The notes below the pieces were generated by a model. That model ran no database searches and had not been told where the DNA came from. It saw only the letters and a program-made list of their open reading frames with translations. Both the position numbers and the translations under genes were made by a program. Shown here in pieces: positions 10,961-62,939 of a stretch of DNA of 64,000 nucleotides; the first letter of the stretch is position 1; each line of letters opens with the position of its first letter. This DNA comes from Myxococcota bacterium (GTDB taxonomy: Bacteria; Myxococcota; JACRCW01), in NCBI GenBank assembly GCA_040752415.1, contig JBFMGU010000003.1, positions 1-64,000 on the forward strand. Direction: 5' to 3'.

Positions 10961-11144
10961 CGGCGTGAAGGCCGGCTGATTCCCTGACGAGCCCCGGGTT
11001 CGGGCTGCGCATTGTTGCGTGGTCCGCCCGGCCCGTCACCGGCCCACCCATCCACACGCAGAACTGCAACCTCTGTCGTCGTCGGTGATGCCGCCGCACG
11101 CGCTGCGTGTGCCCGGTGTCTCCGAAAGCGCGGGCTGAACCACC

Positions 11145-12755: not shown

Positions 12756-12765
12756 CGGAGTCACC

Positions 12766-28013: not shown

Positions 28014-28173
28014 GCCATGAACCCATGCGTGCGCAAATGTTCTTTCCTCCCGGGAGTTTACGACGACGGGTCCCGGAAGTCATTGCGCCCGTGGCCTGGC
28101 CCCCGGCTGGGACGTCCAAGCCCAGGTCCGAGCGCGTGCCCGCCGGCCGGGTGCGAGGTAACTCCGCGTCCTG

Positions 28174-29382
28174 ATGGCTTCCCCCACGCTGGTCCAGGCC
28201 CCCACCGGGGTCTACGTGCACGTGCCCTACTGCCGGCACCGCTGCCCGTACTGCGACTTCTACCTGGTGGTGGGCCGCCCCACGCCCGCGTTCACCGACG
28301 CCCTGTTGGCCGATTGGTCCGCCGCACGGGAGCTCCTGGCGGGGGTGTCCACGCTGGAGAGCGTGTACCTGGGCGGAGGCACGCCGGGGCGGATGGCGCC
28401 CGGGGAGGTGGGACGGCTGCTGGAGGCCATCCACGCCGCCATCCCGCTGAAGGCCGGGGCGGAGGTCACGCTGGAGGTGAACCCCGACGACGTCACGGCG
28501 GAGACGCTGGCGGGATGGCGCGCCGCGGGCGTGACCCGGATCTCGCTGGGCGTGCAGGCGCTCGACGACGCCACGCTGCGCTGGCTGGGGCGCGGACACA
28601 GCGCGGAGGAGACGTTGGGCGCGTTGGAGGCGGTGGCGGCCGCGGGGTTCCCCACGTTCTCGGCGGACATCATCTTCGGCGCGCCGCAGCAGCCGCTCAG
28701 CGCGCTGGACGAGGCAGTGCGCATCATGGCGGGCCTGGCGCCGCACATCAGCGCGTACTGCCTGACCTACGAGGAGAACACCAACCTGGGCCGGCGCGTG
28801 GAGAAGGGACGCGTGATGCCCTTGGACAACGACGTGGAAGCCGACCTCTACGAGCGCGTCCGCGACGGGCTGCACCGCGCGGGGCTGCGACAGTACGAGG
28901 TGAGCAACCACGCGCGCCCGGGACACGCGGCGGTGCACAACCGGCTCTACTGGGCGGGCGCGCCCACGCTGGGCCTGGGGCCGGCGGCAGCGTCCTACCT
29001 GCGCTTCTCCGACGGAACCGCGCGGCGCTGGCGCGTGGCGCCCGACCTGGACGCGTACCTGCGTGGAGAGCGGCGTGCGGTCGACGTCGACGAGATGGCG
29101 CCGGCGTTGGCCCTCCGCGACCGCATCTTCGCCGGCATCCGCGACCTGGAGCGCGGTGTGGACCTGCGTCGTCTCGAGGTGGAGCACGGGGTGGGGGTGC
29201 CGGATGACGTCGTGGCCGCGCTGGAGCGCGAGGTGGCGGCGGGTGCGCTGGAGCGGGTGGGGGAGGGCCGCTACCGGCTCACCCCGTCGGGCGCGCTGGT
29301 GGGGGACCGGGTGGCGCGCGGTGTGGTGGCCCGGGATGACGACGGAAACCGTCCGTCTCCGCTGACCGTGCTTCCGTCTTGA
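28174..29382 (+). CDS. hemW: radical SAM heme chaperone HemW-like (HemN family, oxygen-independent coproporphyrinogen-III oxidase-like)
   Basis: VYVHVPYCRHRCPYCDF (CxxxCxxC radical-SAM cluster motif at the N-terminus), YLGGGTPG, HemN-like C-terminal domain. About 400 aa. Confidence 0.75.
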   Translation: MASPTLVQAPTGVYVHVPYCRHRCPYCDFYLVVGRPTPAFTDALLADWSAARELLAGVSTLESVYLGGGTPGRMAPGEVGRLLEAIHAAIPLKAGAEVTLEVNPDDVTAETLAGWRAAGVTRISLGVQALDDATLRWLGRGHSAEETLGALEAVAAAGFPTFSADIIFGAPQQPLSALDEAVRIMAGLAPHISAYCLTYEENTNLGRRVEKGRVMPLDNDVEADLYERVRDGLHRAGLRQYEVSNHARPGHAAVHNRLYWAGAPTLGLGPAAASYLRFSDGTARRWRVAPDLDAYLRGERRAVDVDEMAPALALRDRIFAGIRDLERGVDLRRLEVEHGVGVPDDVVAALEREVAAGALERVGEGRYRLTPSGALVGDRVARGVVARDDDGNRPSPLTVLPS

Positions 29383-31564: not shown

Positions 31565-32347
31565 TCAACGCGACAGGTGCGCCACGATCACCGTGATGTT
31601 GTCCTTGCCCGCCACGCGGTTGGCCATCTTCACCACCTCGTTGGCCAGCCAGTTGATGCGTGAGCCGCGGTGCTCGCTCGGCGCCAGCGCGGCGCGGATG
31701 AGCTCGGTGAGCTTGCGCTCGCTGACAAAGTCGGTGACGCCGTCGCTGCACAGCAGGTAGAGGTCATCATCCTTCACGCGGTCCACGCGCACCGTGGGCA
31801 GCACGTCCATCTCAATGCCCAGCGCCCTGGTGATGATGTTCTTCTCCGGGTGGAAGCGCGCCTGCTCCGGTGAGAGGCGACCGGCGTCAATGAGCTCGTT
31901 GACCTCGCTGTGATCGCGCGTGAGGGGCTCCAGCTTGTCCGCGCGGAAGCGGTAGACGCGGCTGTCTCCCACGTGCGCCACGTGCGCCAGCCCGTCGTGG
32001 AAGAGCAGCGCGGCCACCGTGGTGCCCATGCCCTGCAGGCCGCTGTTGCGCGCCGCGGCGTCGTAGATGGTGTAGTTGGCCACGCGGATGGCCATGGAGA
32101 GACGGTTGCTCTCCGGCAGCAGATTGGGGTCCCACGGGTAGGGCAGCGGGAGGTTGGTGCCCTGGCGCGTGGCGCGGATGAAGTTGGCAATGCTGTCGCA
32201 TCCCAGGCGACTGGCCACCTCACCACCCGCGTGACCACCCATGCCATCACACACCACGTAGAAGCGGTGCACGTCGTCCGTGACGTAGTGATCTTCGTTG
32301 ATCTTGCGATGCACGCCGACATCCGTGCAGGCCACGACTTCAAGCAT
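31565..32347 (-). CDS. PP2C-family Ser/Thr protein phosphatase
   Basis: MLEVVACTDVGVHRKINED..FYVVCDGMGGHAGGEVAS...DNITVIV are PP2C/PPM motifs. The listed ORF extends 16 codons further upstream (to 32395). Start at MLEVV is preferred by homology. Confidence 0.75.
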   Translation of the reverse strand: MLEVVACTDVGVHRKINEDHYVTDDVHRFYVVCDGMGGHAGGEVASRLGCDSIANFIRATRQGTNLPLPYPWDPNLLPESNRLSMAIRVANYTIYDAAARNSGLQGMGTTVAALLFHDGLAHVAHVGDSRVYRFRADKLEPLTRDHSEVNELIDAGRLSPEQARFHPEKNIITRALGIEMDVLPTVRVDRVKDDDLYLLCSDGVTDFVSERKLTELIRAALAPSEHRGSRINWLANEVVKMANRVAGKDNITVIVAHLSR

Positions 32348-32410
32348 CGCGCGACGAACCTCAGGTGGGCCCCACTCTGACGTGATGGGCCTCACAACGC
32401 AATGACGATG

Positions 32411-34525
32411 TCAGTCCTCGGAGCGTGGGACCTTCAGCATGCTGCCCACGCCGGTGAAGGATTCTTCCCCACCTTCTCCTCCCTGGAACGCCTGCCAGAT
32501 GCGCTGGGCGGTGGCGCGGGTGACGCCGGGGACCGCGGCCAACTCCTCGGGTGAGGCCTGCTTGACGGCGGTCAGCGAGCCGAAGTGACGCAGCAGGGCC
32601 TTCTTGCGCGTCTCACCCACGCCGGGAATGGCGTCGAGCTCGGAGCGGAACGCGCTCTTCTTCCGGCGGGCGCGGTGGAAGGTGATGGCAAAGCGGTGCG
32701 CCTCGTCGCGCAGGCGGGTCATGAGGTGCAGCTCGGCGGTGTTGGTGCGCAGCGCAATGGGGTCCTTGACGTCGGGGAGGAACACGCGCTCGGGGCTGTG
32801 CCGGGAGCCGCCCTCCTCGCCGCCTTCCTCCCAGCGCTCCTCAGGCGCGGCCTCGTCCACCAGCTGCTTGCGACCGAAGTAGCCACGTCGACCATCCGCC
32901 TTGAGCGCGCGCGCCTTGGCCAGGGAGCACAGCTCCACCCAGCTCTCGCGGCCGCGTGGCCACAGGGGGGTCCCGTCGTCACGGGTGCGGTTGCTGAACG
33001 CCTCCGCCTCGGTGGCGCTGATGGGGATGCCCACGTCCTGGAACGCGGCGCGCGCCACGCCCAGCTGGCCCTTGCCGCCGTCGATGACCATGAGGTCCGG
33101 GAGGTCATCCTCCTCCAGTCCACGACGGAGACGACGCACCAGCACCTCGTGCAGCATGGCGAAGTCGTTGGTGCCCTGCACGCTCCTGATGACAAAGCGG
33201 CGGTAGCGGCTCTTGTCCGGGACTCCGTCGACAAAGACCACCTTGCTGGCCACCGGCTCGTGCCCCTGGAAGAGCGAGACGTCAAAGCACTCCATCACCG
33301 TGGGACGACGGGAGAGCCGCAGCCGTTGCTGCAGGCGTTCCAGCGCGCGTGAGCGGGTCTCGTGACGTCGGAGATGGTCCTCCAGCAGGGTCTCCGCGTT
33401 GCGCGTGGCAATCTCCACCAGCTTGCGCTTGTCACCGCGTTGGGGCGCGTGGAACTCCACCTTCCGACCGCGCAGCTCGCGGTAGTAGTCGGCGCGCGCC
33501 TCGGCCTCGCCCTCGGGGAGCTCGAGCGGGAGCAGGACCTCGTCGGGGAGGTCGGCGGGGGGCCGCTGGGCGCGCACGTCCAGGACCTGGAGGATGAGCT
33601 CGTCGTCGGGAAGCTCCGCGTCGGCAAAGTACAGGTTGTCCTTCCCCACGATGCGGCCGCCACGCAGGCTGAGGATGCTCACCGCCACCGCGTTGCCGCT
33701 GCGCGCCAGGCCCACCACGTCGGAGTCGGGACGGTCCGGGTCGGCCACCACCTGGCGCTCCACGGTCCGCTCGATGTCCCGCAGCTGGTCGCGGAGTCGC
33801 GCCGCCTCCTCGAACCGCAGCTCCTCGGAGGCATTCAGCATGCGTTGCTGCAACGTGTCCACCAGGGCGTCCTGCTTGCCGGAGAGGAACAGCACCGCGT
33901 CGTCGACGTGCTGGCGGTAGGTCTCCTGCGGAATCTCGAACACGCACGGCGCCATGCAGCGACCGATCTGGTACTCCAGGCACGGGCGCGAGCGGTTCTG
34001 CAGGACGTGGTCGGTGCAGGTGCGGAGCTGGAAGTGCTGATTGAGCAGCCGCAACGTTCCCCGCACCGCCGCCGCCGACGAGTACGGACCGAAGTAGCGG
34101 AACCCCGGCTGCGCGCCTTCCTGGACGAGCTGGTGGGTGCGGAAGACCTCGATGCGGGGGTAGTCGTGGCGCAGGTTGAGCCGGAGGGTGATGAAGCTTT
34201 TGTCGTCCTTGTGGACCACGTTGTAGGGCGGCTTGTGCTGCTTGATGAGCGCTTCCTCCAGCAGCAACGCCTCCTTCTCGCTCCGGACGACGATGACCTC
34301 GAGATCCCCCAGCACGGCGGTGAGCAGGGAGACAAAGGCCCGCGTGTCTCCGCTGCGGTTGAAGTAGCTGCGCACGCGCGAGCGCAGGTTGACGGCCTTG
34401 CCCACGTAGATCACCGCGCCCTTGCGGTCCCTCATGATGTAGACGCCGGGCTCCTGCGGCAGGTTGTCAATGCGGCCGGTCAGCTCGTCGGAGAGGCCGT
34501 AGCGCGAGGGTTCGGGCAGGGTCAT
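32411..34525 (-). CDS. uvrC: excinuclease ABC subunit C
   Basis: N-terminal GIY-YIG (PGVYIMRDRKGAVIYVGKAVNLRSRVRSYF), UvrBC domain, C-terminal RNase H-like and HhH (IPGVGETRKKALLRHFGSLTAVKQASPEELA). 704 aa. Confidence 0.9.
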   Translation of the reverse strand: MTLPEPSRYGLSDELTGRIDNLPQEPGVYIMRDRKGAVIYVGKAVNLRSRVRSYFNRSGDTRAFVSLLTAVLGDLEVIVVRSEKEALLLEEALIKQHKPPYNVVHKDDKSFITLRLNLRHDYPRIEVFRTHQLVQEGAQPGFRYFGPYSSAAAVRGTLRLLNQHFQLRTCTDHVLQNRSRPCLEYQIGRCMAPCVFEIPQETYRQHVDDAVLFLSGKQDALVDTLQQRMLNASEELRFEEAARLRDQLRDIERTVERQVVADPDRPDSDVVGLARSGNAVAVSILSLRGGRIVGKDNLYFADAELPDDELILQVLDVRAQRPPADLPDEVLLPLELPEGEAEARADYYRELRGRKVEFHAPQRGDKRKLVEIATRNAETLLEDHLRRHETRSRALERLQQRLRLSRRPTVMECFDVSLFQGHEPVASKVVFVDGVPDKSRYRRFVIRSVQGTNDFAMLHEVLVRRLRRGLEEDDLPDLMVIDGGKGQLGVARAAFQDVGIPISATEAEAFSNRTRDDGTPLWPRGRESWVELCSLAKARALKADGRRGYFGRKQLVDEAAPEERWEEGGEEGGSRHSPERVFLPDVKDPIALRTNTAELHLMTRLRDEAHRFAITFHRARRKKSAFRSELDAIPGVGETRKKALLRHFGSLTAVKQASPEELAAVPGVTRATAQRIWQAFQGGEGGEESFTGVGSMLKVPRSED

Positions 34526-34655
34526 GGTTGCGGGTCGTCAGCACGGCGGACGTGCCGTGGGCAGCCTTTATAGTGACCGCCGCCGCCTTGGTCAGGGGCA
34601 TCCGGGCGAAGGCCGTCCGACGCCGCCGTGAGCGCAACCGGACCGGTGTTGGGAG

Positions 34656-36242
34656 TCAGGCGGGCTCCACGTTGCGGGGGCCGGCGTGCGTGGTGAGGCC
34701 CCTGGGCCGGCGCAGCGACGTGGCTCCACGGAATGCCAGACGGCGCAGCAGTCGCAGGGCGGGGATGGGACCCTCGATCATGGTCTCCAGCTCGCGCACG
34801 ACGTTGAGGTTTCCCTTCTGCACCCCGGGTTGGAAGAGGACGCGTTTCTGCTCGGCGGGCTCCAGCAGCATGTCCAGCGCGGACCAACCCTCCGTCATGG
34901 GCAACGCCTCCATCTGCATCATGTTGAACCAGAGCCGGCCCAGCCCCGTCAGCGTGTGGCCGGGGCCGCCTGGCTCGATCAGTCCACGACGCCGCCAACT
35001 GTCGACGAGGGCCCGCCCCGCCAGGTTGTCCACCGTGTGCCGCGGCACGCGGAAGAGCAGCAGCCCAAACACCAACGCCCGACGACGGGCCTGGGGAGCC
35101 GCCAGTGGTTTCCACGCGCGGATGGGGAGTTTCTCCTCGGAGATCAGCCGCAGGTACTCCGGCAGGGACGCCACCTGGTGGTAGAGCGTCCCATCGACGA
35201 GGCCGTAGGAGGAGGGCCCCAGGGCGAGGATCTCATCCAGTCCGCTTTGTCCGCCGTAGTGGGTCTGGTTGAACGCGGTGAGGCGCGCGGGGTTCCGGTC
35301 AAACACGTCACCCGCGACGTGGTGGAAGCCCGCGGCAAGCAGCTGCGCTGTCGAGTCCACGCGCATGCGCAACAACGTGTCGCCCGCCGCCTGCGCCGCA
35401 CGCACGCCGGCTCGGATCATCTCGTAGTAACGCGTTCCTGGCGTGGCGACGTAGTGCAGCACGTCCAGCGACGTGGCACCCAGCTCCGTGGCCCGCGCAA
35501 GATCCGAGAGCAGCATCGGCCCATCCTGGCCGGGCAGACCCATCAGGAAGTCCATGTTGAGATCCTGGAAGCCCACGCGCGTGACCGCCTCCGCGCACGC
35601 CGCCACGTCTTCCGCGGTGTCCAGTCGGCCAAGCTGTACGCGCAGCGGCTGGTGGAAGGTCTGCACGCCGATGCTGATGCGCGTGACGCCCAGCGCCTGG
35701 AGGCCGCGCAGGTAGGGCTCGTGGCGGAGTTGATGGGACATGCCCTCGAACGTCACCTCCAGGCCACGACGGAGCGGGAGGTGTCGTGCGGCGGTGGTGA
35801 GGATGCGCTCCACCTGGTCCAAGGTGAGCATGCTGGGGGTCCCGCCGCCGACGTAGATGCAGTCGATCTCGCGCGCCCGCGCCGTGGCGGTGGTTCCCTG
35901 CAGCTCGATCTCACGACACAGCGCGCGGACAAACCGCTCGATGACGTCGGAGGATTGCTCCTTGGGATCCGTGGTCTTGTAGAGCATGCAGAAGTGGCAG
36001 AACGCGGGACAGAACGGCACGTGGAGGTAGAGCTGCCGGGTGCGCTGGCGGCCTCCGGGGCACGCGTCGAGGTAGCGCGCGGTGTCGGGGCGGAGCGCTG
36101 GCGCCCACTGCTCCGGGTGCGGCGCCGGTGACGACGGAAGAAGCTGGTGCACCGGGTACATCTTGATGATGGGTGGAAGGAGGGCGGGGAAGGGTCGGCC
36201 AGGTGGGCCGAACCACCCGCTCCAGAGCGCATCAAGCTGCAT
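34656..36242 (-). CDS. HemN-like (class C-type) radical SAM protein with N-terminal extension
   Basis: LYLHVPFCPAFCHFC (CxxxCxxC), IYVGGGTPSML and a HemN-like fold. Start ambiguous: MQLDALW at 36242 (11-nt overlap with the upstream P450 stop) or MYPVHQ at 36161. The listed ORF runs to 36380 through the P450 3' end. Confidence 0.6.
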   Translation of the reverse strand: MQLDALWSGWFGPPGRPFPALLPPIIKMYPVHQLLPSSPAPHPEQWAPALRPDTARYLDACPGGRQRTRQLYLHVPFCPAFCHFCMLYKTTDPKEQSSDVIERFVRALCREIELQGTTATARAREIDCIYVGGGTPSMLTLDQVERILTTAARHLPLRRGLEVTFEGMSHQLRHEPYLRGLQALGVTRISIGVQTFHQPLRVQLGRLDTAEDVAACAEAVTRVGFQDLNMDFLMGLPGQDGPMLLSDLARATELGATSLDVLHYVATPGTRYYEMIRAGVRAAQAAGDTLLRMRVDSTAQLLAAGFHHVAGDVFDRNPARLTAFNQTHYGGQSGLDEILALGPSSYGLVDGTLYHQVASLPEYLRLISEEKLPIRAWKPLAAPQARRRALVFGLLLFRVPRHTVDNLAGRALVDSWRRRGLIEPGGPGHTLTGLGRLWFNMMQMEALPMTEGWSALDMLLEPAEQKRVLFQPGVQKGNLNVVRELETMIEGPIPALRLLRRLAFRGATSLRRPRGLTTHAGPRNVEPA

Positions 36243-37566
36243 GGTGTCCCCCGTGGTGATGTGGGCAGTGCCTGATGGCCGGCCGTCGTCGAGGATGGAT
36301 GGCGGTGATTTCCACGCGCGTCCCGGTGGAGGGCGCCACCGTGACGCCACCCAGGCGCGCACGTGGTGTTGCGCGTTCAACGAGTCGGTAGTCCGCGGCG
36401 CGCAACAGGGAGGCCAGAAGAACCTTCATCTCGTGCAACGCGAGGTGCCACCCCACGCAGCGACGGACGCCACCGCCGAACGGCAGGAACTCGAAGGGCC
36501 CGAAGGTGCGATCCCCAAAGCGTTCCGGGTGGAATCCGTCGGGATCGCGGAAGACGTCGGGGAGGTGATGGGTCAGGTACAGGCACCCCACCACGGTGTC
36601 GCCGACGGGAATCTCGTAATCACCCACGCGGAAGGGACGCAGCGCCCTGCGCGGCACAAACGGCACCACCGACGCGCGTCGCAGCGCCTCCTGGCATACC
36701 TGCGCCAGGTACGGAAGGTCGACGACGTCACCAGGCGTCGCAGCATCACGAAGCTCCTCCTTCAGACGCAGGTGGACGTGGGGGTGGGCAAGCACCAGGT
36801 ACATGGCCCACGCCAGCGCCTTGCCCAGCGTTTCCTGGCCCGCCACCAGCAGCGACGTCACGTTCTCCAGCAACGCCTGCTCGTCGCCACCGCGAAGGTC
36901 GTCGAGAATGTCCGCAGGATCCACGGCGTCCCCTCGTCGCCGGAGCTCCCGGCGCAGCAGCTCGTGGACCCGCGCTCGTCGACGCAGGACGGGGTCCACC
37001 AGGACGCCCCGCTGCAACGCCGGCACGAACATGGTGACGCCCAGCGAGTTCGCGAAGTCGATGATCGCGGGAACCAGGCGCGCGGCGACGTCGTCAGGGC
37101 ATCGGCCCAGGAGTGCATGGACCACCACGCGCGTGGTCATTCGTTGGAGCGTGGGCAGCAGCGCCATCGGGACGCCCCGTTGCCACGTGGCCGACTCCTC
37201 GTCGACAACGCGCTGGATGACGTCGTTGATCTGCCCGGTGACCGCACCGCGCATGCACCCCTGCACACGTCGGTATTCCGCCAGGTAGGCAGCGCCGGAG
37301 AGCATGAACAAGGACCCGTTCCCGAACAGCCAGCGACCGGATTCCGCCGCGGCGGCAGCGCACAGCACGTCGTCGGGAGCGGTGAGGATTTCGCGCAGAT
37401 GCTCGGGTCGTGAGAACACCACCCAACGCATCCCGGCCATGCGTGGCAACGTGAATGAAGCGCCATACCGCTGAGCGGTGAGACGCAGGAACCCGAAGGG
37501 GTCATGCGCCCAGTGCAGCAACGTGGGAAGCAGGTGCCGCGGACCAGGCGGCAATGACGACGACAT
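36232..37566 (-). CDS. cytochrome P450 monooxygenase
   Basis: Heme-binding loop FGGGVRRCVGWHLALHEM (FxxGxRxCxG). AGQETLGKA is an I-helix-like oxygen-binding motif (AGxET). EALRR is the K-helix ExxR. 444 aa. Confidence 0.8.
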   Translation of the reverse strand: MSSSLPPGPRHLLPTLLHWAHDPFGFLRLTAQRYGASFTLPRMAGMRWVVFSRPEHLREILTAPDDVLCAAAAAESGRWLFGNGSLFMLSGAAYLAEYRRVQGCMRGAVTGQINDVIQRVVDEESATWQRGVPMALLPTLQRMTTRVVVHALLGRCPDDVAARLVPAIIDFANSLGVTMFVPALQRGVLVDPVLRRRARVHELLRRELRRRGDAVDPADILDDLRGGDEQALLENVTSLLVAGQETLGKALAWAMYLVLAHPHVHLRLKEELRDAATPGDVVDLPYLAQVCQEALRRASVVPFVPRRALRPFRVGDYEIPVGDTVVGCLYLTHHLPDVFRDPDGFHPERFGDRTFGPFEFLPFGGGVRRCVGWHLALHEMKVLLASLLRAADYRLVERATPRARLGGVTVAPSTGTRVEITAIHPRRRPAIRHCPHHHGGHHAA

Positions 37567-37730
37567 GGGTTTCCTCCCGCAGTGTCACGGGAGCGGTCCC
37601 AAGCAACGGGGATACCAAGCGCGCGCCGCCTCATTCGGGGGAGGCTGAGGCAATGCGCGGCCTGATCATGCAAGAGTTGCCCGGCTGGATGTTGCCCAGT
37701 TGAGCAAGCGTTGCTTCGTGTCGTCGGGAG

Positions 37731-38798
37731 TCAGTAGGGAAGGTCGCCGACGCCGAGGATGCGTGTGAAGGGCGGGGCGCTACCCACGTCCTGCAAACGC
37801 CCCACCACGCTGGCCTTCTGGCCCAACGTGCCCAGGACGTCGACGGCGCGCTGGGCGTCTTCCTGCCTCACCACCGCCACCATCCCCAGGCCCATGTTGA
37901 AGGTGCGGTACATCTCGTCGGGGGAGACGTTGCCACCGTCGGCGAGCACCTTGAAGAGCGGCGGGGTGGGCCAGGTGGCGGGATCGAGGATGGGGGCGAG
38001 TCCCTTGGGCAGAACGCGCGGGAGATTCCCCGGCAGTCCCGAGCCGGTGATGTGACTCAGCGCGCGGACCTCGAGCTCCTTGCACAGCGTCGTGACGGCG
38101 CGGGTGTAGAGCGCGGTGGGGGTGAGCAGGGCGTTGGCGGCGGTGGTTCCGTCGGGCAGCAGGGGGTCGTGAACGGAGCGGCCCATGCGCTCGAAGATGA
38201 TCTTCCGTGCCAGGCTGAGGCCGTTGCTGTGGATTCCCGTCGAGAGCATGCCCACCAGCGCGTCGCCGGCGCGGACCTTGCTGCCATCAATGAGCTGGCT
38301 TCGCTCCACCACGCCCACGGCGAAACCGGCAAGATCGTATTCTCCCTCGTCGTAGAGGCCGGGCATCTCCGCGGTCTCCCCGCCCACCAGGGCAATCTGC
38401 GCTTCCTCGCAGGCGCGGGCGATGCCGGTGATGACGGACTGCGCCTGGCCCACCTCCAGCTTTCCGCACGCGAAGTAGTCGAGGAAGAAGAGGGGCAGGG
38501 CGCCGGTGGTGAGGACGTCATTGACGCACATGGCGACGAGGTCCTGGCCCACGGTGTCATGCTTGTTGGCCATGAAGGCCACCTTGAGCTTGGTACCCAC
38601 GCCGTCGGTGCCGCTGACGAGGACTGGGTCGGTGAACTTGCCCGCGGCCATGAGCTGGAAGAGGGAAGCGAAACCGCCGACGCCGGCCATGACGCCGGGA
38701 CGGTGCGTGCGCTTGGCTGCCTCGGAGATGGCGTCGACCAGGCGGTCCCCGGCCTCCGCGTCGACACCGGCATCACGATACGTCAGCGAGCGCGTCAT
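37731..38798 (-). CDS. purM: phosphoribosylformylglycinamidine cyclo-ligase (AIR synthetase)
   Basis: MTRSLTYRDAGVDAEAGDRLVD... is the typical PurM N-terminus. GGFASLF and DVLTTGA motifs. Start chosen 5 codons inside the listed ORF. Confidence 0.9.
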   Translation of the reverse strand: MTRSLTYRDAGVDAEAGDRLVDAISEAAKRTHRPGVMAGVGGFASLFQLMAAGKFTDPVLVSGTDGVGTKLKVAFMANKHDTVGQDLVAMCVNDVLTTGALPLFFLDYFACGKLEVGQAQSVITGIARACEEAQIALVGGETAEMPGLYDEGEYDLAGFAVGVVERSQLIDGSKVRAGDALVGMLSTGIHSNGLSLARKIIFERMGRSVHDPLLPDGTTAANALLTPTALYTRAVTTLCKELEVRALSHITGSGLPGNLPRVLPKGLAPILDPATWPTPPLFKVLADGGNVSPDEMYRTFNMGLGMVAVVRQEDAQRAVDVLGTLGQKASVVGRLQDVGSAPPFTRILGVGDLPY

Positions 38799-38904
38799 GC
38801 AGTCACCCTTCACGTCAAGGAGCCTTGCTGCGGTGTATCAGTTCGAGGGACGTTGTCCATAGCGGCACCGAGGACGCCCCCTGGGGTGGTATTGGCGTGA
38901 CGTC

Positions 38905-39453
38905 GTGGCGCGCGAGGCGTGGCAAGGTCGGGAGGAAGGGATGAACGCTGACCGGGATGAAGACTTCGAGGACGGCCCTGACGCGGATCGCGCGGCTGCG
39001 GGCTCGAGGACATTGAAATCCATCCGGCTGCCAACGCACCTGGTGCAGGCGGCGGAACGGCAGGCGAAGCACCTGGGGATCGGGTTTGGTGACGTCGTGG
39101 GGGATGCATTGGCGTCGTGGCTGGGCCACCCGCGAGAGCCCCGGACCATGTTGCTGGCCGAGCTTGCCTCATTGCTGCGGACCGCCTTCTACGACGAGTG
39201 TCCGCCCGACGTGGTGCGCCGCCTCTACCTGGAGATCCAGAACACGCCGCAGTTGTGGGATCTCTATACGGCGGCGATCTCGGAACGCGGGCGTCCCGAT
39301 GAGAAACGACGAGAGTCGCTGCACATCGCGATTGGGCGGATGGTGCCCAGGGTCCTCGAGGCCTTCCCGGATGGGCGCGTCGCCACGGCGGAGGAGACCG
39401 AGCTCATCCGAGGTTATCCCCTTCTGTTTCGCACCCGTGTCAACAAGGTGTAA
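38905..39453 (+). CDS. hypothetical protein
   Basis: 182 aa, acidic N-terminus. No family recognised. Its TAA stop lies inside the palindromic core of repeat copy C. Confidence 0.3.
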
Positions 39454-39600
39454 TACACCTCGAACACAACTTGACATGCCTGCCGGAGGGGGCCCCCCGC
39501 GCCCGCCGGCTCTTCCGCGCTCCCCGCGGACACGCCCTCCCAACCCAACCCACGCATTGCGCTGCGCCGACGTTGCACGGTCAAGCACCCAAGGGGACGT
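39441..39600 (+). repeat. dispersed repeat, copy C (core GGTGTAATACACC; CCCTCCCAACCCAACCCACGCATTGCGCTGCGCCG block)
   Basis: Shares the palindromic core, the TTGACATGCC segment, GGGGGCCCCCC, and the CCCTCCCAACCCAACCCACGCA..GCGCTGCGCCG block with copies A/B at 26.96-27.39 kb. Located in the 5' leader of the pyrC-pyrB fusion gene. Confidence 0.6.
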
Positions 39601-39692
39601 GGAAGTCGTCACGTACAGACTTCCGGACAAACGGAGTGGTCACAGCAGGCATTGTCGCGCGGAACATGATCCGGGTAACAAGCGCGCCGCCC

Positions 39693-41756
39693 ATGGCCAC
39701 CCTCCGACTCCCTGGACTGATCGATCCCCACGTTCATCTCCGTGATCCCGGCGCCACCCACAAGGAGGACTGGGACACCGGCACCGCGGCCGCGTTGGCA
39801 GGCGGATTCACGTGTGTGCTGGAGATGCCCAACACGACGCCACCCGTGACGGACGCGGCGTCGTTGTTGCTGAAGCAGCAGGCGGCGCGAGCGCGCGCGC
39901 GATGCGACTACGGCCTGTACCTCGGCGCCGGCGAGTCGAACGTCGACGACGCTGCGTCACTGGCACCGCAGGTTGCGGGGTTGAAGTGCTACATGGACAC
40001 CACGTTCGGTCCATTGAAGATCGACGGGTTGGCGGCGCTGATGGCACACGCGGCGCGCTGGCCGGCGGATCGTCCGCTGGCGTGTCACGCCGAGGGGCGC
40101 AACGTGGCGACGGCGATCCTGGTGGCGCACCTGACGGGTCGCGCGGTGCACATCTGTCACGTGGCGACGAAGGAGGAGATCGAGCTGATCCGTGCGGCCA
40201 AGAACAAGGGCCTGAAGGTGACGTGCGAGGTTGCGCCACATCACCTGTTCCTGACCGCTGACGACGTCAAGGGAATGGGTGGTCGCGGTACGGTGCGCAC
40301 GCCTCTGGCCACGGCGGCGGATCGCCAGGCGTTGCGCAACAACCTGGACATCGTCGATTGTTTCGCCACGGACCACGCGCCGCACACGCTCGAGGAGAAG
40401 GACTCCGAGAAGCCGCCGCCCGGATTCCCCGGTCTGGAGACGGCGCTGCCGCTGTACCTGGCGCTGGTGCGGGAGAAGGTGTTGACGCTGGAGGACCTGG
40501 TCCAGAAGTGCGTCGACAATCCGCGCCGGATCTTCAACATCCCCGCGCAGCCGGAGACGTGGGTGGAGGTGGATCCGGACTCGGAGTGGGAGGCGCGTGG
40601 CAAGGACATGTTCACGCGCGCCAAGTGGACGCCTTTCGAGGGATGGAAGATGCGTGGCCGCATCACGCGCGTGGTGCTGCGCGGCAAGACCGCCTTCCAC
40701 GACGGAAAAGTGCTGGCGCCGCCAGGCAGCGGGCTGGACCTGATCCGTGAGGGCATCCCGGCGCAGCCCACGGAGCAGCTCCAGCGCTCCACGCGGTTCA
40801 CCGCGCCGATGGCGTCGTCGCCAGGCGGCTCGCGGTTCCACAACCAGCACATCCTGTCCATCTCCCAGTTCACACGCTCCGACCTTCAGGACATCTGTGC
40901 CGTGGCCGAGCAGATGCGCACCATGGTGGAGCTGGTGGGCACGTTTGATCTGCTCAAGGGCAAGGTCCTGGCGTGTCTGTTCTACGCGCCGTCGACACGA
41001 ACGTCGTCGTCATTCATCGCGGCGATTGAGCGCCTGGGCGGCTCGGCCATTCCCATCAGCGGCGTGCAGTTCTCGTCGGTGGCCAAGGGAGAGTCGCTCC
41101 CGGACACGGTGCGCACGCTGGAAGCCTACGCCGACGTCATCGTCCTGCGACACTCCGAGACCGGCGCGGCGGCCACGGCGGCACGGTACGTCAAGAAGCC
41201 CATCATCAACGCAGGCGACGGCGTGGGCGAGCACCCAACGCAGGCATTGCTGGACCTGTTCACCATTCGCGAGGAGCTCGGCCGCGTCGACGGGCTCACG
41301 GTGACCATGCTGGGCGACCTGAAGTACGGCCGCACCGTGCATTCCCTGGCGCGCCTGCTCTCCCTCTACGACGTGAAGCTCAACTACGTCTCACCGGAAA
41401 TCCTGAAGATGCCGCCGTCCATCGTCGAGGAGCTGAAGGCGAAGGGCGTGCCGCAGCGGGAGTTCAACTCGCTGGACCCGGTGCTGGCGGAGACCGACGT
41501 GCTCTACGTGACGCGCGTCCAGAAGGAGCACTTCACGGACATGAAGGAGTACGAGTCCGTGCAGGGTTCGTACTCGATCACGTCGGAGACCATGCTGCGG
41601 GCCAAGCCGCGGATGGTGTTGATGCACCCGTTGCCGCGCGTGGGGGAAATCTCCATGGAAGTGGATAACGACCCGCGCGCTGCGTACTTCCGCCAGATGA
41701 ACTACGGCCTCTACGTCCGCATGGCGCTGCTGGCCATGGTGTTGGGGAAAGCATGA
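39693..41756 (+). CDS. pyrB: fused dihydroorotase-like / aspartate carbamoyltransferase (PyrC-PyrB single polypeptide)
   Basis: N-terminal [20 protein letters not shown]...DHAPH is the amidohydrolase/DHOase metal-binding signature. From about residue 380 the sequence reads as ATCase: [12 protein letters not shown] (STRTR carbamoyl-P site), [15 protein letters not shown] (HPTQ), [15 protein letters not shown]. No stop between the two halves. The listed ORF from 39471 has a non-homologous 5' extension; an alternative start is MIRV at 39666. Confidence 0.75.
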
Positions 41757-44208: not shown

Positions 44209-44340
44209 CCTCCCAACGGTTTCTCGACGTGCGCAGACCTTGCCGTGAGCAGGTGCAACGTCGATGTCGGCTGGCTATCTCGCGTGCCCACGCGCGGGGT
44301 CTTGTTCCCGTTCATGGCATAGGTTAGGTGCCCAGCCCTC

Positions 44341-47208
44341 ATGGTCGCTCCCACGTCGCCGGTTCACTGTCTCGTCGTCACGTTCCACCGCGCCGAGGAC
44401 CCGCGCGCCCACGGGCTGCTCTCCAGCGCACATGCCCTGGGCTTCACCGGGATCACGCAGGTGGAATGCGCGGATCTCTACTTCCTCGAGGGAGCGCTCA
44501 CGTCGCAGGACCAGCAACGCCTGGCGCGCGAGCTGCTCAGTGATCCCGTGGCGCAGCGTGCGGAGTGGCGCATGGGCAAGGCGGCTGCGTCGGGAGCGGG
44601 GGTCCACCTCGTGGAAACCGCGTTGCGCCCCGGCGTCACCGACCCCGTGGCGGAGCAGATCATCCGCAGCTCGCGCATGCTGGGCATTGCCAGCGTGACC
44701 GCCGCGTCGACGGGACAGCGCTTCGTCCTGCGCGGCGCCATCGACGAGAAGCAGCTCCAGCGCCTGACCCGCGCGCTCCTTGCCAACCCGGTCATCCAGC
44801 GGTGGTCGTTCGGTGAGATCGACCCCGTGTTCCCGCATCCCGCCGAGGCTTCGGGGAAGGTGGAGACCATCCCGGTGCGGGAGCTGAGTGACGACGGACT
44901 GCTGGCCCTCAGCAAGCAGCGTCGTGCCGCGTTGGACCTCGCGGAGATGAAGGCGATCCAGGGCTTCTATCGCAGCGTGGGACGCGACCCCACCGACGTG
45001 GAGCTGGAAACGATCGCGCAGACCTGGAGCGAGCACTGCGTGCACAAGACCTTCCGCGCACGCATCAGCGTGACCGGTCCCGACGGTGCGTCGTCGGAAG
45101 TGGATGGCCTGCTCCGCACGTTCATCCGCGCGCCCACCGAGAAGATCGCCGCGCCGTGGGTGCGCTCCGCCTTCGTCGACAACGCCGGCATCATCGACTT
45201 TGACGACGAGAACGAGGTCTCCTTCAAGGTGGAGACGCACAACCATCCCTCGGCCATTGAGCCCTTTGGTGGCGCCAACACCGGCGTGGGCGGCGTGATC
45301 CGCGACGTGCTCGGTGTCTCCGCCAAGCCCATCGCCGCCACCGACGTGTTGTGCTTCGGCCCGCAGGAGACGCCGCCGCAGGGCCTGCCCGAGGGCGTGC
45401 TGCACCCGCGACGCATCCAGTCCGGCGTCGTCGCGGGCGTGCAGGACTACGGCAACAAGATCGGTATTCCCACCGTCAACGGCGCCATCCTGTACGACGA
45501 GGGCTACACCTCCAACCCACTCGTCTATTGCGGCTGCGTGGGCATTGCGCCCAAGGGCAGTCACCCGCGTCAGCCCCAGAAGGGCGACCGCGTGATCGTC
45601 CTCGGCGGACGCACCGGGCGCGACGGACTCCGCGGCGCCACGTTCTCGTCGATGACCATGGACGCGCAGACGGGTGAGGTGGCCGGCGCGTCGGTGCAGA
45701 TCGGTGATCCCATCGTCGAGAAGGGGCTCATCGAGGTCTGCACGCGTGCGCGGGACCGCAAGCTCTACCACGCCATCACGGACTGCGGCGCCGGTGGTTT
45801 GTCCTCCGCCGTCGGGGAGATGGCCGCCGGAGTAGGCGCCGACGTCGAGCTCTTCAAGGTGCGGCTGAAGTATCCCGGCCTGGCGCCCTGGGAGATCTGG
45901 CTCAGTGAGGCGCAGGAGCGCATGGTGCTCGCGGTGCCGGACGTGGCCCCGCTGCAGGCGCTGTGTGACCTGTATGACGTCGAGCTCACCGACATCGGCG
46001 CGTTCACCGGCGACGGAAAGCTGGTGGTGCGCTACCAGGGCCGCCCCGTCCTGGATCTGCCCACGGACTTCATGCATGACGGCATTCCTCGTCGTCATCT
46101 GAAGGCGGAGATCGTGACGCCGGTGCGTTCGGCCGCTCCCGCGCCGCGCGTTGACGACGTGGGGCGCACCACGCTGAAGTTGCTGGCGCATCCCAACATC
46201 GCGTCCAAGGCGCCCGTCATCCGCATCTATGACCACGAGGTGCAGGGCGGTACCGTCGTGAAGCCGCTGACCGGCGCGGTCAATGACGGCCCCTCCGACG
46301 CGTGCGTGCTGAAGCCCATGGGCACCAAGGGGCTGCGCGGCATCGTGCTCTCCAACGGCGTCAATCCCCAGTTCGGCAAGCGCGACGCGTACCGGATGGC
46401 GCTCAGTGTCGTCGACGAGGCGCTGCGCAACGCTGTGGCGGTGGGTGCGGATCCCACGCGCGTCGCCATCCTGGACAACTTCTGCTGGGGCGACCCGCTG
46501 CGGCCGCAGACACTTGGCGCGCTCGTCGAGGCGGCGCGGGGTTGTCGGGATGCGGCGCTGCACTTCGGAACGCCGTTCATCAGCGGCAAGGACTCGCTCA
46601 ACAACGAGTACCTGGGCGCCGACGGACAGCGTCATGCCATCCCGCCCACGCTCCTCATCAGCGCCATGGGGGTCATCGACGACGTCACCCAGGCCGTCAC
46701 CATGGATCTCAAGGAAGCCGGCAACGTCGTGTATCTCCTGGGGGAGACGCGCGCGGAGCTCGGCGGTTCCCACCTGGGTCTCGTGCTCGGACGCGACATC
46801 GGCGGCGTGGTGCCCGACCAGGTGGAGTTCGCGCCCGCGTTGTTCAAGGCCCTGCACGTCGCCATCCGCGCCGGTGTGGTGCGGGCGTGCCACGACCTCA
46901 GCGAGGGTGGTCTCGCCGTGGCGGCGGCGGAGATGGCCATCGCCGGTCGACTGGGGCTGGAGCTCACGCTGGACGTCGACGACGTGGTGACCGCGCTGTT
47001 CAGCGAGTCCAATGCGCGCTTCCTCGTCGAGGTGCGCAGCAAGGACACCGCCGCGTTCGAGTCCCACCTTGCGGCGCTTGGTCCACGTCGTTACACGCGG
47101 CTCGGCTCCGTCGTCGCCACGCCGGCGCTAAGCATCAAGAACCGCACCGAAACCCTTTGCGCGCTGCCGGTCCAGGAGCTGGTGGCTGCGTGGAACACCC
47201 TTCCGTGA
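44341..47208 (+). CDS. purL: phosphoribosylformylglycinamidine synthase, small-type PurL fused to two N-terminal PurS-like domains (PurS-PurS-PurL)
   Basis: Residues ~1-200 contain two PurS-like units (..LRPGVTDPVAEQIIRSSRMLGIASV..FVLRG..). The PurL body follows (TWSEHCVHKTF, ETHNHPSAIEPFGGANTGVGGVIRD, GDPIVEKG). 955 aa, versus ~740 aa for stand-alone small PurL. Confidence 0.85.
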   Translation: MVAPTSPVHCLVVTFHRAEDPRAHGLLSSAHALGFTGITQVECADLYFLEGALTSQDQQRLARELLSDPVAQRAEWRMGKAAASGAGVHLVETALRPGVTDPVAEQIIRSSRMLGIASVTAASTGQRFVLRGAIDEKQLQRLTRALLANPVIQRWSFGEIDPVFPHPAEASGKVETIPVRELSDDGLLALSKQRRAALDLAEMKAIQGFYRSVGRDPTDVELETIAQTWSEHCVHKTFRARISVTGPDGASSEVDGLLRTFIRAPTEKIAAPWVRSAFVDNAGIIDFDDENEVSFKVETHNHPSAIEPFGGANTGVGGVIRDVLGVSAKPIAATDVLCFGPQETPPQGLPEGVLHPRRIQSGVVAGVQDYGNKIGIPTVNGAILYDEGYTSNPLVYCGCVGIAPKGSHPRQPQKGDRVIVLGGRTGRDGLRGATFSSMTMDAQTGEVAGASVQIGDPIVEKGLIEVCTRARDRKLYHAITDCGAGGLSSAVGEMAAGVGADVELFKVRLKYPGLAPWEIWLSEAQERMVLAVPDVAPLQALCDLYDVELTDIGAFTGDGKLVVRYQGRPVLDLPTDFMHDGIPRRHLKAEIVTPVRSAAPAPRVDDVGRTTLKLLAHPNIASKAPVIRIYDHEVQGGTVVKPLTGAVNDGPSDACVLKPMGTKGLRGIVLSNGVNPQFGKRDAYRMALSVVDEALRNAVAVGADPTRVAILDNFCWGDPLRPQTLGALVEAARGCRDAALHFGTPFISGKDSLNNEYLGADGQRHAIPPTLLISAMGVIDDVTQAVTMDLKEAGNVVYLLGETRAELGGSHLGLVLGRDIGGVVPDQVEFAPALFKALHVAIRAGVVRACHDLSEGGLAVAAAEMAIAGRLGLELTLDVDDVVTALFSESNARFLVEVRSKDTAAFESHLAALGPRRYTRLGSVVATPALSIKNRTETLCALPVQELVAAWNTLP

Positions 47209-48955: not shown

Positions 48956-50382
48956 GCGCGCTGCCCATCCTCTCCACCGACGACCGTCCGCACGAGGAGT
49001 GCGGCATCATCGCCATCTCCGCTCCCGACGAGGACGCCGCGCGCATGGCGTTCTTCGGCCTGTTCGCGCTGCAGCACCGCGGGCAGGAGGCGGCGGGCAT
49101 TGCCGTTTCCGACGGGTCCACCGCGCGCCTGCACAAGGACGTGGGCCTGGTCACCCACGTGTTCCACCCGCAGGACCTCAAGAACCTGCACGGACACGTC
49201 GCCATCGGGCACACGCGGTATTCCACCACCGGTTCCTCGTCGGTGCGCAACGCGCAGCCGTTCCTCATCGAGACGCAGTGGGGCTCGCTGGGCGTGGCGC
49301 ACAACGGCAACCTGGTGAACGCGGGGCAGCTACGGCGGGAGGTGCTGGAGCGCGGCGTGGGGCTCTCGTCGTCGTCGGACAGCGAGGTCATGACCATGAT
49401 GCTCGCGGGCGCCGCCGGGCACACCTGGGAGGAGCGCATCCAGAGCGCCATGGCGCGTTGGCGCGGTGCGTACAGCCTGGTGATCCTGGCGCGCGACTCC
49501 GTCTACGCCGTGCGCGACCCGTGGGGCTTCCGCCCGCTCTGCGTGGGTCGGCTGTCGGGGGGCGGGCACGCCGTGGCGTCGGAAACGTGTGCGCTGCGCA
49601 CGCTGGGCTGTGAGTCCATCCGTGAGGTGGCGCCCGGCGAGATCGTGCACATTCGTGGGAAGGATCTGAAGAGCCACCAGGCCATGCCGGCCATGCCGCA
49701 GACCGCGCTCTGCACGTTCGAGCACATCTACTTCTCGCGCCCGGACAGCGAGCTCGACGGACTCTCCATCCACCAGGTCCGCCAGCGTCTGGGCGAGGAG
49801 CTCGCGCGGGAAGCGGGAGTGCCTGCTGACGTCGTGGTGCCGGTGCCGGACAGCTCGGTTCCCGCCGCGGTGGGCTACGCGCGCGCTTCCGGCATCCCGT
49901 ACAACGACGGGCTCATCAAGAACCGCTACATTGGTCGCACCTTCATCGAGCCCACGGACTCGCTGCGCAAGCAGGGCGTGGCCATGAAGTTCAACGCACT
50001 GGAAGCCAACCTGCGCGGCAAGCGCACCGTCCTCATCGACGACAGCATCGTGCGCGGCAACACCTCCGGTCCGCTGGTGAAGCTGCTCCGCGACGCTGGC
50101 GCCACCGAGGTTCACCTCCGCATCACCTGCCCGCCCATTGCGCACCCCTGTTACATGGGCGTGGACATGGGCACCTACGACGAGCTGCTCGCGCACCGCC
50201 TCTCGCTCGAGCAGATGCGCGCGCACATCGGCTGCGACAGCCTGCGCTTCCTTTCCGTCGAGGGAATGATGCGCGCCATTGGTCGGAGCAGCGGCTACTG
50301 CAACGCGTGCTTCACGGGGAAGTATCCCATTGATGTTCCCGCTGGTGCGGCCAAGACGGGTTTCGAGAAGGCCATTGGATGA
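48952..50382 (+). CDS. purF: amidophosphoribosyltransferase
   Basis: MSALPILSTDDRPHEECGIIAI is the N-terminal nucleophile Cys after Met. HTRYSTTGSS and VLIDDSIVRGNTS (PRTase motif). The start is inside the listed ORF 48523.. and overlaps the purC stop (ATGA). Confidence 0.9.
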   Translation: MSALPILSTDDRPHEECGIIAISAPDEDAARMAFFGLFALQHRGQEAAGIAVSDGSTARLHKDVGLVTHVFHPQDLKNLHGHVAIGHTRYSTTGSSSVRNAQPFLIETQWGSLGVAHNGNLVNAGQLRREVLERGVGLSSSSDSEVMTMMLAGAAGHTWEERIQSAMARWRGAYSLVILARDSVYAVRDPWGFRPLCVGRLSGGGHAVASETCALRTLGCESIREVAPGEIVHIRGKDLKSHQAMPAMPQTALCTFEHIYFSRPDSELDGLSIHQVRQRLGEELAREAGVPADVVVPVPDSSVPAAVGYARASGIPYNDGLIKNRYIGRTFIEPTDSLRKQGVAMKFNALEANLRGKRTVLIDDSIVRGNTSGPLVKLLRDAGATEVHLRITCPPIAHPCYMGVDMGTYDELLAHRLSLEQMRAHIGCDSLRFLSVEGMMRAIGRSSGYCNACFTGKYPIDVPAGAAKTGFEKAIG

Positions 50383-57880: not shown

Positions 57881-58142
57881 GACCCATTCCCTCGCAAAAG
57901 GCCCCCACGTAGCGCCCCAGATGGGTGTGCTCGTGTGGGAAGAGGCCTACATTGTCGCACAGGCCGCGAAAGGGTTGCGAGGAAGATCGGTCAGGTGGAG
58001 GACCCGACTTCTAACGGCATGAATTATCAGGTGAATTTGCGCTCGAGATGATCCCGTGACGGCCGGATACGGCAAGGTGCGGATGGTTTCCGGCGGATGT
58101 CTGTGCCGCACCCCGGTTGGGAATGCGGATCGTGCTGGCCGG

Positions 58143-62771: not shown

Positions 62772-62939
62772 CTCCCCGGGTGGGACGGCGCGTCGACGAA
62801 GACGTGACCGCCCTGCGGGCCAAGGAGGCTACCAGTCGTGGGTGTGCCGAGGAAGGGAGCGTGCCCCGCGGGTGCGAACGCATGCCGGGCGGAGCATGCA
62901 GCGCGGCGGCCGAGTCTGGGGCCGCCGCGCCGCGAAGGC

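Follow-up and report, generated by a model that had tools for sequence, protein, structure and literature searches.

A cytochrome P450 and a rare HemN-like class C radical SAM protein encoded as a stand-alone gene pair in a Myxococcota genome

Introduction

Class C (HemN-like) radical S-adenosylmethionine (SAM) enzymes carry out chemically difficult additions of one-carbon (C1) units to unactivated sp2 carbons, and to our knowledge only about a dozen of them have been characterized. According to the class C paradigm, a methylene radical derived from SAM adds to an sp2 carbon (PMC10114718). Two precedents are linked to polyketide synthases (PKSs): CoeI, whose gene belongs to a type II PKS cluster, takes part in the modification of an anthraquinone at C2 that leads to hydroxymethyl and methoxymethyl groups (PMC9714029), and Jaw5 acts on PKS-bound enoyl intermediates (PMC10114718, PMC13459092). 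In this paper, we describe a gene pair encoding a cytochrome P450 and a class C radical SAM protein, found in a stretch of 64,000 nucleotides from a Myxococcota bacterium (assembly GCA_040752415.1, contig JBFMGU010000003.1, positions 1 to 64,000; hereafter called the window).

The radical SAM protein of the window is a distinct and rare variant within a known kind of enzyme, and it stands alone in an unusual setting. Because of the class C paradigm and the precedents of CoeI and Jaw5, we propose, with a probability of roughly 0.5, that the pair is a two-gene cassette for C1 addition and oxygenation on a lipophilic molecule made elsewhere in the genome.

Results

Organization of the gene pair

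The initial annotation, made from the sequence alone, had described a co-directional pair beside uvrC, in which a 444-amino-acid (aa) P450 with an FxxGxRxCxG motif overlaps by 11 nt, if a start at MQLD is used, a HemN-family protein of about 530 aa with CxxxCxxC and GGGTP motifs and an N-terminal extension of about 70 aa. All of these points were borne out (Table 1). On the minus strand, the order is purM, a 164-nt spacer, the P450 gene, the radical SAM gene, a 130-nt spacer counted from the radical SAM stop codon, uvrC, and the genes of a protein phosphatase 2C (PP2C) and an FG-GAP protein. The open frame of the radical SAM gene extends upstream as far as a TTG codon at 36380, and the MQLD start, which gives 528 aa, is backed by three observations: 13 of 13 family members align from M1; the NCBI gene call has an identical 528-aa product (MEW5847331.1, beside the P450 MEW5847332.1, on a 94-kb contig of a Myxococcota metagenome-assembled genome); and the frame signal of the GC content at third codon positions (GC3) switches near 36220–36300.

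A strong ribosome-binding site, GGGAGGAA, lies 4 nt before the P450 ATG, and the overlap of the two genes suggests that their translation may be coupled. Co-expression is argued from this overlap together with the Shine-Dalgarno-like sequence inside the P450 coding sequence. Within the stretch that encodes the His-rich end of the P450 (36241–36270), the radical SAM gene has its start codon and its Shine-Dalgarno-like sequence. Scanning positions 32000–39500 for promoters and terminators gave nothing exceeding shuffled expectation.

A rare clade of class C proteins

The radical SAM protein has the CxxxCxxC and GGGTP motifs and the fold that define the class C (HemN-like) superfamily, and both motifs are invariant in its family, as are the positions equivalent to HemN Y56, H58, E145, and R184. 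When the family profile was compared with the PDB, the top match was Escherichia coli HemN (1olt; 134 bits, residues 63–435) and the second was the class C methylase NocN (9p2u; 101 bits). Furthermore, an AlphaFold2 (AF2) model of moderate quality (predicted local distance difference test score 73, predicted template modeling score 0.75) matched 1olt in Foldseek (E = 3e-23, template modeling score 0.71, 412 columns), and by this model the fold is of the HemN type, including the C-terminal substrate domain. As regards the simultaneous binding of two SAM molecules and the formation of a SAM-methylene radical, what was seen is the conservation of these HemN-equivalent residues.

Only PF04055 was found by Pfam in the window protein; HemN_C (PF06969) was undetected in it and in all core-family members. 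The N-terminal extension amounts to about 69 aa relative to HemW, whose model begins at residue 70, and to only about 20–30 aa when measured against HemN or ChuW. The initial annotation did not include a further feature, namely that the C-terminus, too, has a conserved extension, which is about 80 aa long. This extension carries a conserved basic segment, GNxxxxRELExxIEGPxPxLRxxRR, and appears as low-confidence helices in the AF2 model.

The clade is very small. Among 5.8 billion proteins, it comprised 13 full-length clusters, all of 480–537 aa, with 46–53% local identity (45–50% global), and its boundary was sharp, with match scores falling from 488 to 144 bits. Among 1.84 billion representatives at 50% identity, the core family was a single representative, followed by a sister tier of about 17 at 260–450 bits and then by a continuum. 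A motif scan based on the family alignment returned 72 pattern matches in 185,579 species-representative genomes, and none was a relative. The window protein carries both signatures of the clade, xYPxHQLLP in the N-terminal part and the basic C-terminal segment, and is thus a member. In a neighbor-joining tree rooted on the sister clade (32–38% identical), it formed the deepest branch, long and basal, sister to all members linked to ketosynthase (KS) genes. Public annotations of the clade are generic: relatives are labeled “coproporphyrinogen III oxidase,” and JGI labels one “anaerobilin synthase.” Both automated labels are likely mis-annotations, which are corrected here.

Comparison with HemW, HemN, HemZ, and ChuW/HutW

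The initial annotation had called for a profile search among the HemW, HemN, and ChuW-like subfamilies, and in this search the radical SAM protein fell below every curated NCBIfam cut-off: 98.3 bits on the HemN/CpdH model TIGR00538 (cut-off 324.95), 126 bits on the HemZ model (cut-off 321), and 131.2 bits on the HemW model TIGR00539 (cut-off 205.4). A genuine HemW is encoded 5.3 kb from the radical SAM gene, so that the window has two HemN-like paralogues with different roles; these share 34% identity over the N-terminal 185 aa only, and their C-terminal halves are not alignable. Because this separate gene passes the HemW cut-off about 5 kb away, the housekeeping role of HemW is already filled. 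The HemN fold and motifs and the public label of the relatives as coproporphyrinogen III oxidases would fit a housekeeping HemN/CpdH, HemZ, or HemW, but this explanation is effectively refuted by the scores, by the separate HemW, and by the extreme rarity of the family, which is incompatible with such a role. Judged by these comparisons, the radical SAM protein is not a housekeeping HemW or HemN.

The best NCBIfam match, nearly full length, was to the ChuW/HutW model TIGR04107 (199.5 bits). The initial annotation had offered a heme- or tetrapyrrole-modifying function as an alternative, and anaerobic heme degradation of the ChuW/HutW type, or some other tetrapyrrole modification, possibly on the P450's heme or together with it, would agree with this match, with the “anaerobilin synthase” label given to one family member, and with a partner gene that encodes a hemoprotein. 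However, the score is half of the curated cut-off of 400 bits, and the match is generic rather than diagnostic, because the HemW of the window also scores 163 bits on this model and all tiers of distant relatives score about 200–235 bits. On the family profile, true ChuW–ChuX fusions reached 177–180 bits, against 867 bits for the family itself. No ChuX, ChuY, HutX, or heme-uptake genes were found among the ORFs scanned in the window, and a heme-utilization neighborhood (ChuX/HutX, ChuY, heme receptor or transporter) was also not found in the loci of the relatives, which are clusters of KS, flavoprotein, and prenyltransferase genes and not heme loci. In a published phylogeny, the ChuW/HutW clades are neighbors of natural-product class C enzymes such as YtkT/C10P (PMC10114718). 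We consider a function in heme degradation or tetrapyrrole modification highly improbable, and this part of the initial annotation is not upheld.

Genomic contexts of the relatives

We read nine distinct contexts of the core family (loci L001, L003, and L007; L004–6/L015, L008, L009, and L016; L010/11 and L012). KS or KS-like genes adjoin the radical SAM gene in all nine. A flavoprotein gene, or the start of a flavoprotein-like one, lies downstream of the radical SAM gene in eight of the nine, a count in which L010 and L012 show only a GxGxxG start and L008 has an intervening small open reading frame (ORF). L003 departs from this pattern: downstream of its radical SAM gene there is a convergent P450 operon, and the P450 of that operon is the closest of the cluster P450s to that of the window, yet the two are only 30% identical.

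Two cluster types were recognized. In type A (L001, L003, and L007), genes for a ketoreductase, an acyl carrier protein, four KSs, an α/β-hydrolase, a thioesterase, a DSBA-like protein, and a peptide of 55–65 aa precede the radical SAM gene, which is followed by genes for the flavoprotein, a UbiE-type methyltransferase, a DUF898 protein, a P450, an acyl-CoA dehydrogenase, and O-methyltransferases. The small ORF (L001, 7782–7958; L002, 174–350; L003, 7783–7980; L007, 1137–1304) lies directly 5′ of the radical SAM gene, after the DSBA-like gene. Its conserved end, GAYDxDxAGGCG*, gives it the look of a precursor of a ribosomally made peptide with post-translational modifications (RiPP) or of a scaffold peptide; it is absent from the type B loci, and a search of the window for a similar small peptide with a C-terminal GGCG found none.

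Type B (L004–6/L015, L008, L009, and L016) starts with genes for a polyprenyl synthase, a KS, a KS-like protein, the radical SAM protein, and a flavin adenine dinucleotide (FAD) monooxygenase, and continues with a UbiA prenyltransferase, an EthD-like gene, a Rieske protein, an amidohydrolase-2, and a phosphoenolpyruvate (PEP)-utilizing enzyme. The KS is closest to the cispentacin subunit AmcF, the flavoprotein is UbiH-like, and the prenyltransferase is MenA-like, all below the respective cut-offs. This recurrent and apparently undescribed cluster (L004, 3184–15665, equal to L015; L008; L009; L016) may direct the synthesis of a prenylated aromatic compound or quinone. The short contigs L010/11 and L012 have a KS, a KS-like gene, the radical SAM gene, and then a gene with a GxGxxG Rossmann motif at its start. 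The clusters of the core family are of a type II PKS-like or prenyl-aromatic kind. Apart from CoeI and Jaw5, no match for these architectures or for a KS-linked HemN-like enzyme was found in the literature.

Sister-clade members were found between genes for a UbiB-like kinase and an HpnE-like flavoprotein (L017, 3475–6756), with a short-chain dehydrogenase/reductase, an MMPL transporter, and a CrtI/CrtO-like flavoprotein (L018, 1088–7760), and behind a trans-acyltransferase PKS and ahead of genes for a flavin halogenase/monooxygenase-like protein and a Rieske protein (L019, 185–15253). A further one, protein P0243, is fused to a squalene/phytoene-synthase-like (SQS_PSY) domain. These settings hint at isoprenoid lipid substrates. 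The relatives have in common that a class C enzyme stands beside a redox enzyme in the chemistry of polyketides or isoprenoid lipids. Among the members, the window copy alone has no KS genes and no flavoprotein next to it: the KS/KS-like pair upstream and the flavin monooxygenase immediately downstream are absent, and it has a P450 upstream and uvrC downstream instead.

These contexts also bear on the idea that the radical SAM protein is a dedicated HemW-type chaperone that supplies the co-translated P450 with heme. HemN-like proteins do include heme chaperones (PMC10114718), and the gene is tightly coupled to that of a hemoprotein. However, the partner is a flavoprotein and not a hemoprotein in eight of the nine contexts, the window already has a canonical HemW, and the radical SAM protein scores 131 bits against the HemW cut-off of 205, lacks HemN_C, and has a C-terminal half that does not align with that of the window HemW. 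A dedicated chaperone is therefore very unlikely. Taken together, the readings as a housekeeping HemN/HemW, a ChuW-like heme-degrading enzyme, and a dedicated heme chaperone were rejected on the basis of the cut-offs, the separate HemW, and the contexts.

The cytochrome P450

The P450 scored 163 bits on PF00067 (cut-off 22.8) and carries the motifs PPGP (residues 6–9), AGQET (242–246; I-helix AGxET), EALR (293–296; ExxR), PERF (347–350), and FGGGVRRCVG (363–372). Among the 5.8 billion proteins, its best homologue reaches 35% identity, and labels of the matches nearest to it are CYP135 or CYP110. By convention, more than 40% identity is expected within a CYP family, and because the best match is below this value the P450 was not placed in a named family such as CYP110 or CYP135. 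The best curated model, that of the RiPP P450 ApyO (NF050147), gave 138.3 bits, well under its cut-off of 525. The nearest solved structures are E-class P450s (CYP4, CYP97, CYP51, and CYP120), and in sequence the protein resembles E-class P450s that oxidize lipids or terpenoids.

Pairing and surroundings

The initial annotation had made its reading depend in part on whether the pairing is conserved in relatives, and it is not. No orthologous P450 adjoins any relative of the radical SAM protein, and neither of the two P450 relatives examined (on the longest contigs among the top matches) has a radical SAM neighbor. A tblastn search with four P450s against 80 HemN-like metagenome loci (760 kb) gave no matches, and none of ten long HemN-like proteins is fused to a P450, the fusions seen being to SQS_PSY, AMP-ligase, ChuX, or a duplicated radical SAM domain. 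When UvrC was searched in the 185,579 species-representative genomes, the best matches were 44–46% identical, and the nearest loci lacked purM, P450, and radical SAM genes upstream. The pairing is seen only here because the P450 has no relative above 35% identity.

The pair is surrounded by housekeeping genes (purA, HemW, uvrC, purM, pyrB, pyrF, purL, purC, and purH). When about 30 ORFs distributed over the 64 kb were scanned with Pfam, the genes identified included purine and pyrimidine genes, a DabA/antiporter-like cluster, and genes for tetratricopeptide repeat (TPR) proteins and proteases. The window showed no PKS, nonribosomal peptide synthetase (NRPS), terpene synthase, or UbiA, and no core gene of any other kind (RiPP, prenyltransferase), in agreement with the initial annotation; within the window, the pair does not form a biosynthetic gene cluster in the sense of tailoring enzymes beside a core enzyme. 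GC3 of the radical SAM gene is 0.86, ordinary for the window, and that of the P450 gene is 0.80, the lowest among 26 genes of the window (z = −3.3).

A 9-nt match, cTGACTCCC (extended, cTGACTCCC(G/A)AC), occurs at the stop codons of purM and the radical SAM gene (34648–34664 and 37723–37739). It brackets a two-gene cassette of 3,075 bp and ranks first among 325 gene pairs, with a run of 9 against runs of 8 and 7. This repeat may be an insertion scar or may have arisen by chance; an insertion origin is possible but is left unproven because the run is barely above those of the next gene pairs.

The two genes could also be neighbors without a shared pathway, or the orphaned remnant of a horizontally acquired cluster that has lost its substrate. 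The uniqueness of the pairing, the housekeeping surroundings, the low GC3 of the P450 gene, the short repeat at both ends, and the long basal branch of the radical SAM protein all fit this explanation. Yet both ORFs are intact, all of the approximately 130 family-invariant residues are kept in the radical SAM protein and every catalytic motif is kept in the P450, the 11-nt overlap with its internal Shine-Dalgarno-like sequence argues for co-expression, and the repeat hardly rises above background. We regard chance neighbors or a remnant as a minor possibility, though one to be taken seriously.

Other features of the window

A putative inorganic-carbon transporter subunit of the DabA type (12541–16524; PF10070, 844 bits) is flanked by four membrane subunits resembling NuoL/Mrp antiporters (region 11139–21586, plus strand). 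Three fusions of nucleotide-biosynthesis genes lie on the plus strand (39303–41756, 44323–47208, and 50334–52487): one ORF joins an amidohydrolase (DHOase-like) to aspartate carbamoyltransferase, a second joins PurS, the FGAR-AT linker, and PurL, and a third joins a PurN-like formyltransferase, MGS, and AICARFT/IMPCHase (PurH). Additionally, a transglutaminase-elicitor domain (PF16683, E = 5e-96) occurs together with three PPC domains in a protein (55715–57946, minus strand) that adjoins a subtilase-VWA protein of 1,561 aa (58143–62828).

Table 1. Positions in the window of the gene pair, its sequence elements, and the genes used for comparison
Feature	Position	Strand	Evidence
purM, upstream boundary of the pair	37731–38813	−	Pfam AIRS and AIRS_C
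Shine-Dalgarno-like GGGAGGAAA, 5′ of the P450 ATG	37570–37578	−	Sequence read directly
Cytochrome P450 gene, ATG start, 444 aa, intact	36232–37566	−	ORF and translation; Pfam PF00067, E = 1.2e-47
P450 heme-ligand loop FGGGVRRCVG, residues 363–372, Cys370	36451–36480	−	Motif reading
Unusual His-rich C-terminal tail of the P450, HCPHHHGGHHAA	36241–36270	−	Translation
Shine-Dalgarno-like GGGGGA, 4 nt before the radical SAM ATG, within the P450 coding sequence	36247–36252	−	Sequence reading
Overlap of P450 stop codon and radical SAM start codon, ATGCAGCTTGA, 11 nt	36232–36242	−	Sequence read directly
Class C (HemN-like) radical SAM gene, MQLD start, 528 aa	34656–36242	−	Pfam PF04055, family alignment, profile search, fold, tree
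N-terminal extension, about 69 aa relative to HemW, with family-conserved (K)xYP(V/L)HQLLP	36036–36242	−	Model alignment, family alignment
[4Fe-4S] cluster motif CPAFCHFC (CxxxCxxC), residues 78–85	35988–36011	−	Invariant in family
SAM-binding motif GGGTP, residues 132–136	35835–35849	−	Invariant in family
C-terminal extension, about 80 aa past the ChuW and HemN model ends	34659–34907	−	Model and family alignment
uvrC, downstream boundary of the pair	32411–34525	−	Pfam UvrC domains
Genuine housekeeping HemW paralogue, outside the pair	28162–29382	+	TIGR00539, 227.2 bits, above 205.4

Discussion

We propose that the pair acts as a cassette in the following way. The two genes would be co-transcribed and probably translationally coupled. 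The radical SAM enzyme would work like other class C C1 transferases and bind two SAM molecules, one of which would be cleaved at the [4Fe-4S] cluster to give a 5′-deoxyadenosyl radical. A SAM-methylene radical would then add to the substrate at an sp2 carbon and leave behind a carbon in the form of a methyl, methylene, or cyclopropane group, with release of S-adenosylhomocysteine. The P450 would oxygenate the same scaffold, either before this step, making an electron-rich ring, or after it, for example by converting the methyl into a hydroxymethyl group. It would thereby take the slot that a flavin monooxygenase holds beside nearly all other members of the clade. In this proposal, we infer that the genes are co-expressed and that the enzyme uses two SAM molecules to place a C1 unit on an sp2 carbon; the step order and a lipophilic substrate derived from polyketide or isoprenoid metabolism are likewise inferred.

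Several points weigh against this proposal. A joint function has no comparative support, given that a single locus shows the pairing, and the 64 kb offer no candidate for the substrate, as they contain neither a PKS nor a prenyltransferase nor any other core gene. Overlaps between neighboring genes are common in high-GC genomes. Neither the clade nor its sister clade has a characterized member, and the tree was built without characterized class C enzymes. As the window protein is the deepest branch of the clade, it may have a function other than that of the members linked to KS genes. Finally, the outcome of a class C reaction (methyl group, cyclopropane, ring opening, or none of these) is not readable from the sequence. 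As for the interpretation given in the initial annotation, its tailoring part stands, in that the protein is a class C enzyme other than the housekeeping ones and its relatives lie in clusters of the secondary-metabolite type, while its heme part and a conserved pairing do not. The initial annotation had named a grouping with housekeeping HemN/HemW together with a non-conserved pairing as telling against it; the first was not found, and the second was.

A further, bolder reading, which we hold to be rather improbable, combines two ideas. One is that the two enzymes suffice by themselves to modify a respiratory quinone or a primary membrane lipid of this Myxococcota lineage, for example by C-methylation or hydroxymethylation of an sp2 carbon of menaquinone, squalene, or a polyprenyl chain. 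The other is that the clade represents a new class C reaction in undescribed pathways to prenylated aromatic compounds or quinones, built from an AmcF/G-like KS pair, the radical SAM protein, a UbiH-like hydroxylase, a MenA-like prenyltransferase, a Rieske protein, and a decarboxylase. If the pair alone does alter a cellular lipid or quinone, both the enzyme activity and the P450 family, whose role would then be defined, would be new; otherwise, the pair would exemplify how tailoring genes come to be stranded among housekeeping genes. The locus draws attention to a very rare, uncharacterized clade that recurs in two undescribed cluster architectures, and with two genes and no cluster around them it is the smallest possible experimental handle on that clade.

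The proposed cassette can finally be set beside the known systems. Compared with HemW (TIGR00539), the window protein has a radical SAM core that is 34% identical over 185 aa to the HemW of the window, but it is longer by about 69 aa at the N-terminus and about 80 aa at the C-terminus, has an unrelated C-terminal half, and lacks HemN_C. ChuW/HutW (TIGR04107) is the best-scoring curated model and aligns over nearly the full length, but the score is half of the cut-off, the heme-uptake/ChuX/ChuY context is missing, and the family is distant from the ChuW–ChuX fusions. The P450 shares the PPGP hinge and the full set of catalytic motifs with bacterial E-class P450s of the CYP110, CYP135, and CYP120 type and differs from them in its His-rich C-terminal tail and in being at most 35% identical to anything among the 5.8 billion proteins. 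With the natural-product C1 transferases of class C (CoeI, Jaw5, YtkT/C10P, NosN/NocN, TbtI, and MenK), the radical SAM protein shares the HemN fold, CxxxCxxC, and GGGTP; the equivalents of the HemN residues for SAM and the cluster are kept in its family, and NocN is its second-best solved relative. The family differs from these enzymes in forming its own rare clade with both extensions, without HemN_C, and without reaching any curated cut-off. Its relatives occur in PKS-type cluster settings like those of CoeI (type II PKS) and Jaw5 (iterative PKS) (PMC9714029, PMC10114718), whereas the window copy, unlike the class C enzymes embedded in clusters, is encoded with a P450 and no surrounding cluster.

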